Positions 24,607 through 32,390 of a stretch of DNA of 64,000 nt are shown here, piece by piece. Origin of the DNA: Escherichia coli O157:H7 (GTDB lineage Bacteria; Pseudomonadota; Gammaproteobacteria; Enterobacterales; Enterobacteriaceae); the NCBI RefSeq assembly GCF_013167455.1, contig NZ_CP038328.1. One strand, written 5' to 3'. The translations under genes were made by a program, and so were the position numbers. Below the pieces are notes generated by a model that was not told where the DNA came from, ran no database searches, and saw only the letters and a list, made by a program, of their open reading frames with translations. Within the stretch, counting starts at the first letter, position 1. Every line of letters starts with the position of its first letter.

Positions 24607-24844
24607 TGTTCATGTTCTGTGCATCCCGTCACAAATTCCTCGCTTTTGTAATTCAGGCATTTAATCGCATTTTGTGAGCCTGCTCAAATCTGCCCGCTTT
24701 GCCTCTCTGGCGGCAATTTACTTTACGTAAAACATGCATACTATGAGCACATGTTTAAATATGAACACATGTTTAAACCGTCTTTGCAGTATCTATATCC
24801 TTGTGGATTGACAGGGTTGGTAATTTTTTACCAGAGGACGTGCT

Positions 24845-25786
24845 ATGCGCGAAAAGGATTATGTCGTAATTATAGGCTCGGCGAATATTGATGTCGCCGG
24901 ATATTCACATGAATCATTAAATTATGCGGATTCAAATCCAGGTAAAATAAAATTTACGCCTGGTGGGGTAGGGCGCAATATTGCACAAAACCTGGCGTTG
25001 CTGGGTAATAAAGCCTGGCTACTGAGCGCCGTAGGCAGTGATTTTTATGGCCAATCGCTGCTAACGCAAACCAATCAATCTGGCGTTTATGTCGATAAAT
25101 GCCTGATTGTGCCGGGAGAAAATACGTCGAGCTATTTATCATTACTCGATAATACCGGTGAAATGCTGGTTGCTATAAATGACATGAATATTAGCAACGC
25201 TATTACAGCTGAATATCTCGCACAGCACCGTGAATTTATTCAGAGGGCAAAGGTCATTGTCGCGGACTGTAATATCAGTGAAGAGGCACTGGCATGGATT
25301 CTGGATAATGCTGCCAACGTACCCGTATTTGTCGATCCGGTTTCCGCGTGGAAATGCGTCAAAGTACGCGAGCGATTAAGTCAAATCCATACTCTCAAGC
25401 CAAACCGCCTTGAAGCGGAAACCCTGAGTGGGATTGCGCTGTCAGGGCGTGAAGATGTGGCAAAAGTTGCTGCCTGGTTCCATCAACATGGCCTGAACCG
25501 ACTGGTATTGAGCATGGGCGGCGACGGCGTTTATTACAGCGATATCAGCGGTGAAAGTGGCTGGTCTGCGCCGATCAAAACCAATGTTATTAATGTTACC
25601 GGAGCGGGCGATGCCATGATGGCGGGACTTGCTTCGTGTTGGGTAGACGGAATGCCGTTTGCCGAATCTGTTCGTTTCGCACAGGGATGTTCGTCAATGG
25701 CGCTCTCCTGTGAATACACCAATAACCCCGATTTATCGATTGCCAACGTTATATCGTTAGTGGAGAACGCAGAATGTCTGAATTAA
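24845..25786 (+). CDS. psuK: Pseudouridine kinase (PfkB family)
   Basis: 313-aa ORF MREKDYVVIIGSANIDVAGYS...; overlaps psuG by 13 bp. Confidence 0.9.
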   Translation: MREKDYVVIIGSANIDVAGYSHESLNYADSNPGKIKFTPGGVGRNIAQNLALLGNKAWLLSAVGSDFYGQSLLTQTNQSGVYVDKCLIVPGENTSSYLSLLDNTGEMLVAINDMNISNAITAEYLAQHREFIQRAKVIVADCNISEEALAWILDNAANVPVFVDPVSAWKCVKVRERLSQIHTLKPNRLEAETLSGIALSGREDVAKVAAWFHQHGLNRLVLSMGGDGVYYSDISGESGWSAPIKTNVINVTGAGDAMMAGLASCWVDGMPFAESVRFAQGCSSMALSCEYTNNPDLSIANVISLVENAECLN

Positions 25787-26712
25787 AAATTTCCCCTGAA
25801 TTATTACAAATTTCCCCGGAAGTGCAGGACGCTTTAAAAAACAAAAAACCGGTTGTGGCGCTGGAATCGACCATTATTTCTCACGGGATGCCGTTCCCAC
25901 AAAATGCCCAGACCGCAATTGAAGTAGAAGAAACTATTCGTAAACAGGGCGCAGTACCTGCCACTATCGCCATTATTGGCGGCGTGATGAAAGTGGGTTT
26001 AAGCAAAGAAGAAATTGAATTACTGGGTCGTGAAGGGCATAACGTGACTAAAGTTAGTCGTCGCGATTTACCTTTTGTCGTTGCCGCAGGAAAAAATGGT
26101 GCAACCACCGTGGCTTCAACGATGATTATTGCGGCGCTTGCCGGAATTAAAGTATTTGCCACCGGCGGAATTGGTGGTGTTCATCGAGGGGCGGAACATA
26201 CCTTCGATATTTCTGCCGATTTGCAAGAACTGGCAAATACTAATGTCACCGTTGTTTGTGCCGGGGCGAAATCTATTCTCGATTTAGGATTAACCACTGA
26301 GTATTTAGAAACCTTCGGTGTGCCGTTAATTGGCTATCAGACTAAAGCGCTACCTGCGTTTTTCTGCCGTACCAGCCCGTTTGACGTCAGCATTCGTCTC
26401 GACAGCGCCAGTGAAATTGCCCGTGCAATGGCGGTGAAATGGCAAAGCGGGCTGAACGGTGGCCTCGTGGTAGCGAACCCGATCCCGGAACAGTTTGCGA
26501 TGCCAGAACACACTATCAATGCGGTGATCGATCAGGCGGTAGCTGAAGCTGAAGCGCAGGGTGTTATTGGTAAAGAAAGTACGCCATTCCTGCTGGCGCG
26601 CGTTGCTGAGCTGACCGGCGGTGACAGCCTGAAATCCAACATCCAGCTTGTGTTCAACAACGCCATTCTGGCGAGCGAAATTGCCAAAGAATATCAGCGT
26701 CTCGCGGGTTAA
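25774..26712 (+). CDS. psuG: Pseudouridine-5'-phosphate glycosidase
   Basis: 312-aa ORF of the IndA/YeiN family. Confidence 0.9.
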   Translation: MSELKISPELLQISPEVQDALKNKKPVVALESTIISHGMPFPQNAQTAIEVEETIRKQGAVPATIAIIGGVMKVGLSKEEIELLGREGHNVTKVSRRDLPFVVAAGKNGATTVASTMIIAALAGIKVFATGGIGGVHRGAEHTFDISADLQELANTNVTVVCAGAKSILDLGLTTEYLETFGVPLIGYQTKALPAFFCRTSPFDVSIRLDSASEIARAMAVKWQSGLNGGLVVANPIPEQFAMPEHTINAVIDQAVAEAEAQGVIGKESTPFLLARVAELTGGDSLKSNIQLVFNNAILASEIAKEYQRLAG

Positions 26713-26805
26713 TTTCTGACGGGCAGAAAGCCGTCGCCCGTACTCATCAAACATACCGAAACCTGGCGCTGACGCCGGGTTTACTGGCATGAAGGGAAAA
26801 TCATT

Positions 26806-28056
26806 ATGGACATAATGAGAAGTGTTGTGGGGATGGTGGTGTTACTGGCAATAGCATTTCTGTTGTCAGTGAATAAAAAGAGCATCAGTTTGCGTACGGT
26901 TGCAGCCGCACTACTGCTGCAAATTGCTCTTGGTGGCATCATGCTCTATTTTCCGCCGGGAAAGTGGGCTGTAGAACAGGCGGCATTAGGCGTTCATAAA
27001 GTGATGTCTTACAGTGATGCTGGTAGCGCCTTCATTTTTGGTTCGCTGGTCGGGCCGAAAATGGATGTCCTCTTTGACGGTGCGGGTTTTATCTTCGCCT
27101 TTCGCGTACTTCCGGCGATTATCTTCGTCACTGCGCTCATTAGTCTGCTGTACTACATTGGCGTGATGGGGCTGCTGATTCGCATCCTTGGCAGCATTTT
27201 CCAGAAAGCCCTCAACATCAGCAAAATCGAATCTTTTGTCGCAGTCACCACTATTTTCCTCGGGCAAAATGAGATCCCGGCGATCGTTAAACCGTTTATC
27301 GATCGCATGAATCGAAACGAGTTGTTTACGGCTATTTGTAGCGGGATGGCGTCCATTGCTGGTTCGATGATGATTGGTTATGCCGGAATGGGCGTACCAA
27401 TTGACTACCTGTTGGCGGCATCGCTGATGGCGATCCCCGGCGGTATTTTGTTTGCACGTATTCTTAGTCCAGCAACCGAGCTTTCGCAGGTCACGTTTGA
27501 AAATCTGTCGTTCAGCGAAACGCCGCCAAAAAGCTTTATCGAAGCAGCGGCGAGCGGTGCGATGACCGGGCTGAAAATCGCCGCTGGTGTGGCGACGGTG
27601 GTAATGGCATTTGTGGCAATTATTGCGCTGATCAACGGCATTATCGGCGGAATTGGCGGCTGGTTTGGCTTCGCCAATGCTTCTCTGGAAAGTATTTTTG
27701 GCTATGTGCTGGCACCGCTGGCGTGGATCATGGGTGTGGACTGGAGTGATGCCAACCTTGCGGGTAGCCTGATTGGGCAGAAACTGGCGATTAACGAATT
27801 CGTCGCTTACCTGAGTTTCTCCCCATACCTGCAAACGGGCGGCACGCTGGAAGTGAAAACCATTGCGATTATCTCCTTTGCGCTTTGTGGTTTTGCTAAC
27901 TTTGGTTCTATCGGTGTTGTCGTTGGGGCATTTTCGGCTATTTCGCCAAAACGCGCACCGGAAATCGCTCAGCTTGGTTTACGGGCGCTGGCAGCAGCAA
28001 CGCTTTCCAACCTGATGAGCGCGACCATTGCCGGGTTCTTTATTGGTCTGGCGTAA
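26806..28056 (+). CDS. psuT: NupC-family nucleoside (pseudouridine) transporter
   Basis: 416-aa CNT-family ORF, close paralog of the ORF at 29996-31246. Confidence 0.9.
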   Translation: MDIMRSVVGMVVLLAIAFLLSVNKKSISLRTVAAALLLQIALGGIMLYFPPGKWAVEQAALGVHKVMSYSDAGSAFIFGSLVGPKMDVLFDGAGFIFAFRVLPAIIFVTALISLLYYIGVMGLLIRILGSIFQKALNISKIESFVAVTTIFLGQNEIPAIVKPFIDRMNRNELFTAICSGMASIAGSMMIGYAGMGVPIDYLLAASLMAIPGGILFARILSPATELSQVTFENLSFSETPPKSFIEAAASGAMTGLKIAAGVATVVMAFVAIIALINGIIGGIGGWFGFANASLESIFGYVLAPLAWIMGVDWSDANLAGSLIGQKLAINEFVAYLSFSPYLQTGGTLEVKTIAIISFALCGFANFGSIGVVVGAFSAISPKRAPEIAQLGLRALAAATLSNLMSATIAGFFIGLA

Positions 28057-28065
28057 TGCTCAATT

Positions 28066-28106
28066 TGTAGACCGGATAAAACGCATCAAGCGTTGCATCC
28101 GGCAAT
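28066..28106. repeat. REP-like palindromic element downstream of psuT
   Basis: accggataaaacgcatcaagcgttgcatccggc, inverted ccggat/atccgg arms. Confidence 0.55.
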
Positions 28107-28126
28107 CGCGCTATTGCAAATAATTT

Positions 28127-28786
28127 TTACTGCATCATCCCGGAGAATTTATTCTCCGGGTCCATCTCCAGTGCCAGCCCTGACAACTGCTTTCTGTTTT
28201 TAATTAGATATCCTTTCTTGCTTTTAATTAATAAACCGTCGTGAATGAATTGCGCGAGAACATATAAAAGATGTCGATAAGAAACGCCTAAATACTCTGC
28301 CGCTTGCGTATGCTTTTCGTGATAAAGATCACCTTCTTGTGAGAGTAATATAAATGCTGCCAGGCGATTCACTAACGGAAATGATTGATTCTGAGTTAAA
28401 GAAACAATATTACGATAATTTTTATGACTTAAGGTGACGCAAAGTTTTCGTAAAAATAGGGTGTCGTTTAATAACAGCGGACGGTAATGTTTCATAGGGA
28501 GCGCAAGGCACCAACACTCTTCAATAGCCTGTACCGCACGCGGTTCATGGTCTTTATCGATTAACTCAATCTCACCAATAAAACAGGGGGCGGCAAAGAA
28601 ATCGATCAGCGACACGCGACCATTAGCTAGCGTGGCGTAAAGCCTGGCGCGGCCTCGCGTCAGGTAAAACAGCCAGGACGGCTGTTGCCCTTCCTGCACA
28701 ATGTAGTCACGCGCTAAAAAATGAAACAGCCGCGTATCGGCTGAAACATCCGTTAAAAAGCAATCCTTAAACGCGGATTCACTCAT
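28127..28786 (-). CDS. yeiL: CRP/FNR-family transcriptional regulator YeiL
   Basis: 219-aa product from [10 protein letters not shown]; cNMP-binding-like domain plus C-terminal HTH; 13-codon upstream extension in the track ORF. Confidence 0.85.
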
Positions 28787-28954
28787 CAATTGCTGCTTAA
28801 GATCATTATTGTGGATTTCTTTCACGATGTTTATCCGCTATGAGATTTCTCATATTTAGCATACGTACGCTGTTGTTAAGATTCAATCATCGGCCCGATC
28901 GAAATTTCTTTGCTGTAGAAAAAATAACGCAACTGGAAACAGAGGAAATAAACA

Positions 28955-29896
28955 ATGGAAAAGAGAAAAATTATTCTGGATTGTGATCCGGGTCATGATG
29001 ATGCTATTGCTATAATGATGGCGGCGAAACATCCGGCAATAGATTTATTAGGCATCACTATTGTAGCGGGTAATCAGACGCTTGATAAAACATTAATTAA
29101 TGGCCTGAATGTTTGCCAGAAACTGGAGATTAATGTTCCGGTTTATGCGGGGATGCCACAACCCATTATGCGGCAACAAATCGTTGCCGATAATATTCAC
29201 GGTGATACCGGACTGGATGGCCCGGTATTCGAGCCGCTGACCCGCCAGGCAGAAAGCACTCATGCGGTGAAATACATCATTGATACCCTGATGGCAAGCG
29301 ATGGCGATATCACTCTGGTGCCGGTTGGTCCGCTTTCAAATATCGCGGTGGCAATGCGTATGCAACCCGCGATCCTGCCCAAAATCCGTGAAATTGTGCT
29401 AATGGGCGGCGCTTACGGTACAGGCAACTTCACGCCATCTGCCGAGTTCAACATCTTTGCTGACCCGGAAGCCGCACGCGTGGTGTTCACCTCTGGCGTT
29501 CCATTAGTGATGATGGGCCTCGATCTCACCAACCAGACCGTTTGCACCCCGGACGTGATTGCACGAATGGAAAGGGCAGGCGGCCCTGCCGGAGAGCTGT
29601 TCAGCGACATCATGAACTTCACTCTCAAAACCCAGTTCGAAAACTACGGCCTGGCTGGCGGCCCGGTGCACGACGCCACCTGCATCGGTTATCTGATTAA
29701 CCCTGATGGCATTAAAACCCAGGAGATGTACGTCGAAGTGGACGTCAACAGTGGCCCTTGTTATGGGCGTACCGTCTGCGACGAGCTGGGCGTTCTTGGC
29801 AAGCCCGCTAATACCAAAGTCGGCATCACTATTGATAGCGACTGGTTCTGGGGCTTAGTCGAAGAGTGCGTGCGCGGCTACATCAAAACCCATTAA
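28955..29896 (+). CDS. rihB: Pyrimidine-specific ribonucleoside hydrolase
   Basis: 313-aa ORF with DCDPGHDD nucleoside hydrolase signature. Confidence 0.9.
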
Positions 29897-29995
29897 GTGT
29901 TGATAACAAGCCGGGCCGGTATCGCAAGATGCAGGCCTGGCTATTTCTGATGGGCAGAAAGCCGTCGCCCAATATGACATGAAGAGATAATCACT

Positions 29996-31246
29996 ATGGA
30001 TGTCATGAGAAGTGTTCTGGGAATGGTGGTATTGCTGACGATTGCGTTTTTACTGTCAGTAAACAAGAAGAAGATCAGCCTGCGTACCGTTGGCGCGGCG
30101 TTAGTGTTACAGGTCGTGATTGGCGGCATTATGCTTTGGTTACCGCCAGGGCGTTGGGTCGCTGAAAAAGTCGCTTTTGGTGTGCATAAAGTGATGGCGT
30201 ACAGCGACGCGGGTAGCGCATTTATCTTCGGTTCTCTGGTCGGACCGAAAATGGACACCTTATTTGATGGCGCAGGATTTATCTTTGGTTTCAGGGTATT
30301 ACCGGCAATTATCTTCGTCACTGCACTGGTGAGTATTCTCTACTACATCGGTGTGATGGGGATTTTAATTCGCATTCTCGGCGGTATATTCCAGAAAGCA
30401 TTAAATATCAGCAAGATTGAGTCATTCGTCGCGGTCACTACCATTTTCCTCGGGCAAAACGAAATTCCGGCGATTGTGAAGCCCTTTATCGATCGGCTGA
30501 ATCGCAATGAATTATTTACAGCGATTTGTAGCGGCATGGCCTCGATTGCTGGTTCGACAATGATTGGTTATGCCGCACTGGGCGTGCCTGTGGAATATTT
30601 GCTGGCGGCATCGTTAATGGCGATCCCCGGGGGGATCTTGTTTGCCCGCCTGCTAAGCCCGGCTACGGAATCTTCGCAGGTTTCTTTTAATAACCTCTCT
30701 TTCACCGAAACACCGCCAAAAAGCATTATTGAAGCCGCCGCGACAGGGGCAATGACCGGGCTGAAAATCGCCGCAGGTGTGGCGACAGTAGTGATGGCAT
30801 TCGTCGCCATCATTGCGTTAATTAACGGTATTATCGGCGGCGTTGGCGGCTGGTTTGGTTTTGAACATGCCTCGCTGGAGTCCATTGTAGGTTATCTGCT
30901 GGCCCCACTGGCGTGGGTAATGGGTGTTGACTGGAGTGATGCGAATCTTGCCGGGAGTTTGATTGGACAGAAACTGGCAATAAATGAATTTGTCGCTTAT
31001 CTCAATTTCTCACCCTATCTGCAAACGGCTGGCACTCTGGATGCTAAAACCGTGGCGATTATTTCCTTCGCGTTGTGCGGTTTCGCTAACTTTGGTTCTA
31101 TCGGGGTGGTGGTGGGGGCGTTTTCTGCGGTTGCGCCACACCGTGCGCCGGAAATCGCCCAGCTTGGTTTACGCGCGCTGGCGGCGGCGACACTTTCTAA
31201 CCTGATGAGTGCCACCATTGCCGGGTTCTTTATTGGTTTAGCGTAG
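29996..31246 (+). CDS. nupX: NupC-family nucleoside transporter
   Basis: 416-aa ORF, highly similar along its full length to the psuT product. Confidence 0.9.
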   Translation: MDVMRSVLGMVVLLTIAFLLSVNKKKISLRTVGAALVLQVVIGGIMLWLPPGRWVAEKVAFGVHKVMAYSDAGSAFIFGSLVGPKMDTLFDGAGFIFGFRVLPAIIFVTALVSILYYIGVMGILIRILGGIFQKALNISKIESFVAVTTIFLGQNEIPAIVKPFIDRLNRNELFTAICSGMASIAGSTMIGYAALGVPVEYLLAASLMAIPGGILFARLLSPATESSQVSFNNLSFTETPPKSIIEAAATGAMTGLKIAAGVATVVMAFVAIIALINGIIGGVGGWFGFEHASLESIVGYLLAPLAWVMGVDWSDANLAGSLIGQKLAINEFVAYLNFSPYLQTAGTLDAKTVAIISFALCGFANFGSIGVVVGAFSAVAPHRAPEIAQLGLRALAAATLSNLMSATIAGFFIGLA

Positions 31247-31260
31247 TGTGCGATTTATGA

Positions 31261-31295
31261 GCCGGATAAGATGCGGTCAAGCGTCGAATCCGGCA
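31261..31295. repeat. REP-like palindromic element downstream of nupX
   Basis: gccggataagatgcggtcaagcgtcgaatccggca. Confidence 0.55.
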
Positions 31296-31301
31296 ACATT
31301 G

Positions 31302-32390
31302 TTACACCATTGGCACTAATGAAAGCGCGTTATCGGCAGACAGGGTAGGGTTGTTTAAGCTGCCGCTGGCGCGTGAAATTGCCGCGCAGGCCATCGCAAA
31401 ACGGGCGCTGTCACGGAAATTGTTTCCTTCCAGAAAGCTATATACCAGGCCCGCCATAAAACCATCGTCAGCACCAAAACTGTCTACTGTCGTATGCGCT
31501 GGTGCGGTCAGCAAAAATTGTTCTCCATCCTTTTCGCTGCAATAAACTGACTCATCGGGCAAATAAACAAACAGTTGCTGAACACCTTGCTGATGCAACG
31601 CATTCACTGCAGCATTACGGTCAGCATCGCTGGTGATCGCCTGTCCCCATAAAATTTCCAGCTCCGGTAAAGTGGGTTTCAGGGTGTGAATATGCGCCAG
31701 CCAGTGTTTGATTTTGCCCGCTTTGAATTCTGAAACGGTATCGACAAACACCGGGATCTCACCAGCGAGGGTAAAGACCCATTCCAGCGCCTCGGCTGTC
31801 AGGTTGCAATCAGCCAGTACCACGCCCGCATGACGAAGTAAATCGCGCGACCCGTTCAATAATTGCGGCGATAACTGTTCCAGCAGATGGGTATCGTTAA
31901 TCGCCAGCACGGTTTCATCGTCTCGATTGGCAATTGCCAGATACGTCGATGTGCTTTGACCATGTAAACGAACGCAGCCGGAGACATTCACGCCGGCGCG
32001 GCGCGTTTCTTCCAGGAGCATTTCGCCATAAAAGTCATCGCCAATCACTGAAAGCAAATGGACGTCACGGCCTAACAGCGCCAGATTGTGGGCGATGTTG
32101 CGTCCCACGCCGCCCGCTGAGCAATGAATTGTACCGGGATGAGAAGCCGATTGCGGGTAACGGATATCCGCCATCCCGCGAATATCCATATTGATTGTCC
32201 CCACCACTACGCAGTATTCCTGCTCGGTGAGAATGTAACCTTTGCCTTTAATCCGGCCTTTGCGCATTAAATCCATAATATGCGCCGCAACGCGCGAACG
32301 GCTGATTTGCAGCATGTCCGCAATTTCGTTCTGCTGAATCAGCGGGTTACGCCGTAAAATTGCAAGGATCTCCTTTTCCCGGTTATTCAT
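31302..32390 (-). CDS. yeiI: HTH-domain-containing PfkB-family sugar/nucleoside kinase YeiI
   Basis: 362-aa ORF with N-terminal HTH and PfkB kinase domain paralogous to PsuK. Confidence 0.88.
   Translation of the reverse strand: MNNREKEILAILRRNPLIQQNEIADMLQISRSRVAAHIMDLMRKGRIKGKGYILTEQEYCVVVGTINMDIRGMADIRYPQSASHPGTIHCSAGGVGRNIAHNLALLGRDVHLLSVIGDDFYGEMLLEETRRAGVNVSGCVRLHGQSTSTYLAIANRDDETVLAINDTHLLEQLSPQLLNGSRDLLRHAGVVLADCNLTAEALEWVFTLAGEIPVFVDTVSEFKAGKIKHWLAHIHTLKPTLPELEILWGQAITSDADRNAAVNALHQQGVQQLFVYLPDESVYCSEKDGEQFLLTAPAHTTVDSFGADDGFMAGLVYSFLEGNNFRDSARFAMACAAISRASGSLNNPTLSADNALSLVPMV

Follow-up and report, generated by a model that had tools for sequence, protein, structure and literature searches.

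Among the closest described counterparts of the element reported here are the stabilising stem-loops of messenger RNA (mRNA), such as the 5' stem-loop of ompA and the repetitive extragenic palindromic (REP) hairpin of malE-malF. Two further groups invite comparison, the rph-pyrE and pyrBI attenuators and the PyrR sites, lambda boxB and ANTAR dual hexaloops. In the rph-pyrE attenuator a terminating ribosome modulates the folding of the leader. We analysed a 64,000-nt stretch of the Escherichia coli O157:H7 genome (RefSeq assembly GCF_013167455.1, contig NZ_CP038328.1; hereafter the window) carrying two paralogous genes for CNT-family nucleoside transporters of 416 amino acids, psuT (26806-28056, + strand) and nupX (29996-31246, + strand). 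The leader of each contains a short predicted RNA hairpin, here called H1. An earlier reading of the window from its letters alone (the sequence-only reading) had noticed a 27-nt motif at the same two places.

H1 is like the stabilising stem-loops in being a small, stable, sense-strand hairpin in an untranslated operon spacer, adjoining the boundary of soluble-enzyme genes and a membrane-transporter gene. As in that group, the structure is conserved beyond the sequence, unrelated hairpins can replace it, and no ligand or dedicated factor needs to be invoked. Unlike the REP hairpins, H1 is a single copy per gene and not a dispersed repeat, its two places in E. coli both being these leaders, and unlike a generic hairpin it has an apical sequence more conserved than needed. 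In psuT leaders H1 resembles the pyr attenuators: it lies 7-15 nt past a stop codon, and between it and a pyrimidine-nucleoside-related gene comes a G+C-rich hairpin, H2, with a short U run. In contrast to those attenuators, H1 lacks a U tract, most nupX leaders lack H2, and neither an alternative pairing nor a conserved leader peptide was found. With the PyrR, boxB and ANTAR sites H1 shares a short stem, a partly conserved apex and a place in a nucleoside-metabolism leader. However, there was no H1 sequence match to them, no Rfam hit and no cognate protein gene near all loci, and the apex of 11 nt is not a penta- or hexaloop and differs in several genera.

The motif, TTTCTGA(C/T)GGGCAGAAAGCCGTCGCCC, lies at 26713-26739 (TTTCTGACGGGCAGAAAGCCGTCGCCC) and at 29944-29970 (TTTCTGATGGGCAGAAAGCCGTCGCCC), and the position and the identity of 26 of 27 nucleotides claimed for it were both exact. 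The fold first proposed for it, tttctg-N5-cagaaa, did not survive comparison with other genera. Its arms are not conserved: they are broken in E. albertii (TTTCCG) and absent in Citrobacter (AATTTTC) and other genera, and most genera have AGT... where the proposed 3' arm has AGAAA. The TTTCTG of the motif (26713-26718, with an identical copy at 29944-29949, + strand) is outside the conserved hairpin and is not kept in other genera. The conserved fold is YGGGC-N11-GCCCR, whose 3' partner base is one position past the end of the motif as first delimited. In the psuT leader, H1 occupies 26719-26741 (+ strand) and begins 7 nt past the psuG stop codon, with arms ACGGGC (26719-26724) and GCCCGT (26736-26741) around the apical sequence AGAAAGCCGTC (26725-26735). 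In the nupX leader it occupies 29951-29971 (+ strand), with arms TGGGC (29951-29955) and GCCCA (29967-29971) around the same apical sequence (29956-29966). The outer pair is C-G in psuT and U-A in nupX. The local minimum free energy (MFE) computed with ViennaRNA was -11.1 kcal/mol for psuT H1 and -8.3 kcal/mol for nupX H1, and a covariance model, R1, scored the two at 41.9 and 37.7 bits, respectively.

Leaders for comparison came from a genome-collection scan, which gave E. albertii, three Citrobacter species and Superficieibacter among the matches listed, and from a protein search with nine contig look-ups, which added Leclercia, Buttiauxella, Enterobacter hormaechei, Klebsiella spallanzanii and K. 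michiganensis and also gave Salmonella, Kluyvera, Entomohabitans and Dryocola. The loci carry rihB-nupX, psuKGT or both. H1 was present in 19 of 20 leaders from 13 genera, the exception being Entomohabitans psuT, and its common form is a 5-nt arm YRGGY, exactly 11 nt and GCCYR, often with one extra outer A-U or G-C pair. A context-anchored pattern scan of metagenomes gave 10 further distinct leaders; about 100 of its 120 matches were due to chance and were removed by demanding the transporter N-terminus. The resulting alignment, A4, holds 29 distinct leader sequences from genera and metagenomes.

The five core pairs of H1 were paired in 143 of the 145 cells of this alignment. The outer core pair (columns 9/29) was C-G in 18 sequences, U-A in 6, U.G in 3 and unpaired in 2, and the second was G-C in 27 and A-U in 2. 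These two A-U pairs look like separate events, one in E. hormaechei psuT (CAGGC/GCCUG) and one in metagenome leader L199 (UAGGC/GCCUA). The sixth pair, where present, was A-U (13), G-C (4) or G.U (2). Substitutions on both sides occurred in three of the six pairs (12 cells). The covariation score was 0.241, versus 0.157 ± 0.019 in shuffled alignments, and none of 500 shuffles reached it; when the register was slid by 1-3 columns, 30-52% of cells paired, versus 93% in the H1 register. Covariation was also seen within single genomes, C-G versus U-A in E. coli and CAGGC/GCCUG versus CGGGC/GCCCG in E. hormaechei. The core wobbles were all sense-strand U.G (5 cells), versus one C-A mismatch. Compensatory changes beyond conservation, as expected of a conserved structured RNA, were therefore present in H1 by statistics that ignore phylogeny. 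The sequence-only reading had suggested a look for such changes across the Enterobacteriaceae, and those found (C-G to U-A, G-C to A-U) belong to the YGGGC/GCCCR stem.

Conservation falls off sharply on both sides of the hairpin. Mean pairwise identity was 88% over the core stem and 38% in the flanks (7-8 nt), including the flank 5' of H1. Seven of the apical positions averaged 77% and the other four 41%, and 4-fold degenerate coding sites were 41-66% identical. The idea that the leader block is conserved beyond the spacer as a retained cis element was thus borne out, as it forms a bounded island in all the Enterobacteriaceae leaders examined but one. H1 was also kept in species with a single paralog (Citrobacter, E. 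albertii, Salmonella, Leclercia and Buttiauxella). These comparisons make it very probable that selection maintains H1 as an RNA hairpin, its pairing being kept by purifying selection in the psuT and nupX lineages alike.

The apical part appears to be more than an open loop. The predicted base of H1 is a G+C-rich stem, (A)YGGGC/GCCCR(U), of 5-6 bp, and within the 11 apical nucleotides above it 2-4 more pairs, mostly wobbles, can form. The apical "loop" thus continues the helix imperfectly: at positions 2/10, 25 sequences have G.U and 3 have A-U, and at positions 3/9, 13 have U.G, 5 have C-G and 1 has U-A. The elements of Leclercia, E. hormaechei nupX and L199 are perfect hairpins of 11-12 bp (-15 to -18 kcal/mol; z-scores of -4.9 and -7.5 within this group). 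Their apical sequences, AAUCCCGGAUU in Leclercia and E. hormaechei nupX and AACACCUCGUU in L199, are very unlike that of E. coli. Two other pairings were rejected. The fold GACGG/CCGTC within the motif appears in the MFE structure for E. coli, but the GCGGTC apex of Citrobacter and other genera breaks it. A pseudoknot between apical GGU(C) and ACC/GACC of the downstream linker has at most 3-4 bp, is absent in E. coli psuT and shows no covariation by inspection.

Where the H1 sequence is missing, another hairpin stands in its place. Entomohabitans psuT and Hafnia/Serratia psuT, the latter more distant at 73% amino-acid identity, have unrelated stable hairpins of about -26 kcal/mol in the same spacer, which points to a structural rather than a sequence-specific role. 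The long hairpin of the Hafnia/Serratia leaders (CCTGAAAGGTGG...CCTTTCAGG; loci L006-L009, about 2880-2960) has a conserved outer stem and a variable interior.

R1 was run on 750 kb of loci that included 70 distant CNT homologs, and on 80 loci of distant CNT homologs (Vibrio, Pasteurellaceae, Burkholderia and others) it gave no leader match. Over these loci and the metagenome loci, about 1.3 Mb in total, it hit H1 only in leaders of the PsuT/NupX clade. A match of 21.6 bits in locus L070 was discarded, being inside a coding region and not in a leader. Rfam 15 gave no match at H1 in a 9-kb scan, and targeted scans gave only sub-threshold matches (isrJ, 19.3 bits versus a threshold of 37; Yfr1, 17.7 versus 38); a scan of the Serratia and Hafnia leaders gave nothing relevant. 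Our literature searches found no description of the psuT or nupX leaders. As a leader hairpin, H1 is of an ordinary kind, restricted to one clade and previously undescribed.

The spacers of psuT and nupX are alike only in patches. Homology begins 1 nt 5' of the motif, with none further upstream, and the shared leader block is 28 nt long and identical at 27 of 28 positions. A 41-nt segment 3' of this block is found in the psuT leader only, and homology returns at the Shine-Dalgarno/start block. Uniformly high identity across the spacer, named beforehand as the pattern that would count against a retained element, was not what we observed. The ribosome-binding segment described as common to the two leaders is indeed shared: the psuT Shine-Dalgarno/start block GCATGAAGGGAAAATCATTATGGA (26787-26810, + strand, start codon at 26806) is conserved across genera, and its nupX counterpart is ACATGAAGAGATAATCACTATGGA (29977-30000, + strand, start codon at 29996). 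Between the psuT and nupX coding sequences, identity is 78% at the nucleotide level, 88% at the amino-acid level and only 47% at 4-fold degenerate sites, which places neutral sites near saturation. Only 10 of 1225 coding 27-nt windows reached 26 of 27 identities and none reached 27, so that the non-coding 26/27 block lies well above the neutral level.

The motif is confined to these two places. No third copy was found in the window at up to 3 mismatches, and shuffled sequences gave no matches (0/100). A 51-nt BLAST query matched 5424 of 5426 complete E. coli genomes; the median was two places per genome, namely the psuT and nupX leaders. The suggested search for further copies therefore added none.

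An upstream open reading frame (ORF) starting at the conserved cATGAAG was considered and rejected; the ATG is missing in several genera, length and frame are not conserved, and we treat the segment as part of the Shine-Dalgarno region. The frame encodes MKGKSLWT (8 codons, 26789-26815) before psuT, where its stop overlaps the second in-frame ATG of psuT, and MKR (3 codons, 29979-29990) before nupX. The first 45 nt or so of both coding sequences (26806-26871 and 29996-30060) are conserved across genera even at synonymous positions, including a rare AGA codon, as ATGGAYnTnATGAGAAGTGTTCTGGGKATGGTGGTATTACTGGC. In the supplement of a study by Hfq crosslinking, ligation and sequencing of hybrids (Hfq-CLASH), CpxQ-psuT hybrids fall at this conserved 5' coding stretch. 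CpxQ-nupX and CyaR-nupX hybrids fall at a GGGGTGGTGGTGGGGG stretch late in nupX (about 31085-31115), not at H1.

The near-identity of the two E. coli copies probably has a different origin from the conservation of the stem. Over the 27 nt, psuT and nupX share 26 positions in E. coli, 17 in Kluyvera and 15 in E. hormaechei, and the E. coli and Salmonella nupX orthologs share 22, while the 4-fold site identity of the E. coli paralogs is similar to that in other genera. The identity of 26/27 is thus real, but as a measure of constraint it overstates the case, and the difference from 15-17/27 elsewhere suggests local homogenisation. The apical GCCGTC and the upstream ATTTCTGA are features of the Escherichia psuT lineage that are also present in E. 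coli nupX. On these alignments the near-identity is most likely an Escherichia-specific overlay, left by a gene conversion of about 28 bp from the psuT leader to the nupX leader. The donor would have resembled E. albertii or metagenome leader L150, with a U.G outer pair. After the conversion, nupX would have retained its own 3' A, giving the U-A outer pair, and E. coli psuT would later have changed T to C, giving C-G. Alternatively, parallel selection by a common factor may have acted on both E. coli copies.

The absence of a common regulator gene, the hairpin replacements, the covariation within genomes and the sense-strand wobbles together argue for an RNA structure that acts in cis. No regulator gene was common to all H1 loci among the loci examined: E. 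albertii and K. michiganensis lack yeiL, and Salmonella, Leclercia and Buttiauxella lack yeiI. We propose that the leader, with H1 as its 5' module, has accompanied the PsuT/NupX clade since the duplication in Enterobacteriaceae. Acting in cis on the mRNA, H1 would mark the 5' edge of the transporter cistron, either as a barrier or anchor for RNA decay and processing or as an insulator that keeps the downstream ribosome-binding region accessible. Through housekeeping machinery it would determine how much transporter is made compared with the products of the enzyme genes upstream (psuKG, rihB), and in psuT-type leaders it would work jointly with H2. The mechanism, a stability or processing barrier or a ribosome-binding-site insulator, is put forward tentatively from the leader comparisons. 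For the explanation as a whole, a compromise between our confidence in the selected hairpin and in the mechanism, the chances appear slightly short of even.

Several points weigh against this proposal. The covarying sequences come from a shallow clade (at least 85% amino-acid identity) and share ancestry, for which the shuffle controls make no correction. The pattern used on the metagenomes pre-set part of the stem (pairs 2-5), as did the regular expression, with the outer pairs left free. The conserved apical positions (AG...GC.GUC) could signal sequence-specific recognition. The ompA type is 5'-terminal and the REP type protects 3' ends, and H1 is likened to them from its sequence. A published E. 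coli Term-seq supplement (PMC7815308) contains no psuG/psuT 3' end in the leaders, though laboratory expression of these operons is poor. It is also mechanistically awkward that a conversion tract of 28 bp would have had hardly any homology on its flanks.

An alternative is that H1 is the recognition site of a trans-acting RNA-binding factor encoded elsewhere, either a protein or a small RNA (sRNA) with a chaperone, which would read the apical AG...GCGGUC and co-regulate both transporters post-transcriptionally. The conservation of the seven apical positions, one of them (the T at column 23) invariant in 29 of 29 sequences, would fit such a factor, as would the irregular helix formed by a conserved A.C mismatch and tandem G.U/U.G pairs, of a kind often read by proteins. 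The apical change from GCGGTC to GCCGTC and the 8 upstream bases shared by the E. coli copies could reflect co-evolution with one partner, and both mRNAs occur in Hfq-CLASH hybrids, though at sites in coding regions. However, the apex is very different in Leclercia, E. hormaechei nupX and L199, and unrelated hairpins stand in for H1 in Entomohabitans and Hafnia/Serratia. The inner wobble helix also accounts for the conserved apical bases, the loci have no candidate factor linked to them, and with only two copies in E. coli there is no wider regulon. Recognition in trans is therefore unlikely. A bolder form, in which H1 is the operator of a new post-transcriptional regulator coupling the pseudouridine and pyrimidine-nucleoside transporters, and the shared apex and octamer record co-evolution and not conversion, appears quite unlikely. 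If it holds, nucleoside scavenging in Enterobacteriaceae would have a new small RNA regulon.

The leader downstream of H1 bears on a second alternative. In psuT, H1 is followed by an A/C-rich single-stranded linker, ACTCATCAAACATACCG (26742-26758, + strand), and then by the terminator-like H2, AAACCTGGCG-CTGA-CGCCGGGTTT (26759-26782, + strand; as RNA, AAACCUGGCG-CUGA-CGCCGGGUUU), with a short U run. H2 was recovered both in the RNAalifold consensus and in the MFE fold. The linker block ATCA..ATACCRAAA occurs in many, not all, psuT and nupX leaders, with a remnant in E. coli nupX at 29972-29978. H2 is found in psuT-type leaders and in K. spallanzanii nupX and is lost from most nupX leaders, that of E. 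coli included, where it is deleted. One of its pairs is a conserved U.G on the sense strand, which is U-A in metagenome variant L164.

The leader could accordingly be an attenuator or riboswitch-like switch, with H2 as a leaky intrinsic terminator and H1 as a sensing or anti-antiterminator hairpin. The order of elements in psuT-type and K. spallanzanii nupX leaders (hairpin, conserved single-stranded linker, then a G+C-rich hairpin and UUU(U) before the Shine-Dalgarno sequence) fits this, and so do the sub-threshold Rfam matches to two-hairpin sRNA models over 26709-26783. Moreover, psuT-leader H1 starts 7-15 nt after the psuG stop codon, and a terminating ribosome could modulate its folding in the manner of rph-pyrE. 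Against this, H1 occurs without H2 in most nupX leaders, including that of E. coli. The run 3' of H2 has only 3-4 U and was not called by a terminator scan with a threshold of at least 5 T in 8, and in L106 and Entomohabitans H2 is replaced by unrelated hairpins without any U tract. The RNAalifold consensus contained H1 and H2 only, with no conserved mutually exclusive pairing, and inspection of alignments A3 and A4 gave no convincing antiterminator pairing or loop-linker covariation. There is no invariant unpaired pocket as in a riboswitch aptamer: the apical and linker sequences vary, the whole hairpin can be replaced, and the linker is not universal. The Term-seq supplement has no 3' end there, although the operon was probably not expressed in those conditions. 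An attenuating leader is improbable. The sequence-only reading had raised attenuation by the motif itself, which fails for H1 alone, as it is followed by GTACTCATC in psuT and AATATGACA in nupX, neither of them a U tract.

Two side observations concern leader hairpins and signals of this kind. A G+C-rich hairpin in the MFE fold, H0 (29909-29942, + strand), lies just 3' of rihB and directly 5' of the nupX motif; followed by AUUUCU, it resembles a weak terminator, and by inspection hairpins of unrelated sequence take its position in most other genera. The likeness of GCGGTCGCC to the ops element, GGCGGTAGCGTG, reaches no more than 8/11, does not extend to E. coli and occurs in an operon of the wrong type, and we judged it to be chance.

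That H1 is functionless, a duplication relic kept similar by gene conversion or chance with incidental hairpin potential, is also improbable in our judgement. The E. coli identity is inflated compared with that elsewhere, which means that homogenisation takes place, the youth of the clade would let some non-coding similarity persist, and the weak bootstraps for separate PsuT and NupX clades (39% and 24%) make paralog exchange hard to exclude. A relic does not explain why the stem stays at 88% over 13 genera when flanks and 4-fold sites are down to 38-50%, why stem changes are compensated, why single-paralog species without a conversion partner keep H1, or why lineages without the H1 sequence have another hairpin there.

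The weakest alternative, that a dimeric transcription factor of both operons, such as YeiL or the HTH-PfkB protein YeiI, uses the palindrome CGGGC-N11-GCCCG as its DNA operator, draws on the inverted repeat with its fixed 11-bp spacing and on the regulator-like yeiL and yeiI within the E. coli locus, but is highly improbable, since the arms covary between two sites of one genome, as base pairing and not half-site reading predicts, the mismatches are sense-strand U.G only, H1 lies between cistrons with no promoter-like + strand site found by scan, neither yeiL nor yeiI is at all H1 loci, the half-sites are 16 bp apart centre to centre, a spacing that does not fit the geometry of CRP/FNR-type sites, and a better candidate for the psu operon lies upstream of psuK. 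The first suggestion of a binding site for a common regulator is accordingly not upheld at the DNA level.

The candidate upstream of psuK consists of paired CACATGTTTAAA boxes conserved across genera, in E. coli two direct copies at 24748 and 24766 (within 24733-24782), each containing the palindrome ACATGT. Similar paired GAACACATGT boxes upstream of psuK are also found in E. albertii, E. hormaechei, Kluyvera and K. michiganensis, at about 137-160 in locus L002, 7423-7446 in L084, 791 in L089 and 3926-3955 in L092. Paired boxes of this type are absent from the yeiL-rihB spacer. They are likely the operator of a regulator of the psu operon, perhaps YeiI. The Hafnia pseudouridine kinase (L007, 815-1933) is fused to an N-terminal HTH domain resembling E. 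coli YeiI. An internal promoter 5' of H1 was sought and rejected, with no consistent -35/-10 by eye or scan. A genomic study by systematic evolution of ligands by exponential enrichment (SELEX) reported an RpoS-holoenzyme peak inside psuG at U00096.2 position 2255672. By its offset from the yeiE/yeiH peak it falls at about 26386 in the window, some 330 nt 5' of H1, and it may be an internal promoter for psuT.

The region from psuK to yeiI is the E. coli nucleoside-utilisation locus, downstream of fruA, and gene positions were taken from the ORF list and gene names from the RefSeq annotation of an identical E. coli locus. On the + strand, psuK (24845-25786) and psuG (25774-26712, stop codon at 26710-26712) precede psuT, and rihB (28955-29896) precedes nupX; on the - strand lie yeiL (28127-28825) and yeiI (31302-32390). 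The description of the locus as a duplicated module goes too far. The transporter with its leader is closely duplicated, but PsuK and YeiI are distant paralogs with only 39% amino-acid identity, and psuG (Indigoidine_A) and rihB (IU_nuc_hydro) belong to unrelated families. Across genera the locus is built of modules: psuKGT-yeiI stands alone in E. albertii and K. michiganensis, yeiL-rihB-nupX stands alone in Salmonella, Leclercia and Buttiauxella, and E. hormaechei has the two modules in reverse order relative to E. coli. REP-like palindromes, CCGGATAA...ATCCGGCA, lie directly 3' of the psuT and nupX stops at 28066-28105 and 31257-31296 and align to each other; they may have been co-duplicated or separately inserted. 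A weak Rfam match to naRNA4 lies at 28070-28134 (- strand).

To our knowledge, psuKGT and rihB-nupX are poorly understood and largely silent in the laboratory, and we know of no post-transcriptional control of either. The comparisons make H1 a plausible but modest mRNA leader element before psuT and nupX across enteric bacteria. It remains a small, clade-restricted element of an ordinary kind, whose interest a specific trans-acting partner, if found, would raise. H1 is a compact case of a cis element that outlasted the duplication of its gene, and a wobble intermediate apparently became C-G in one copy and U-A in the other. A covarying hairpin in the leaders of both paralogs would offer a mutable handle on the dosage of the transporters versus the catabolic enzymes, and this question of dosage bears on current efforts to engineer E. 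coli strains that produce pseudouridine, in which psuT and psuG are altered.

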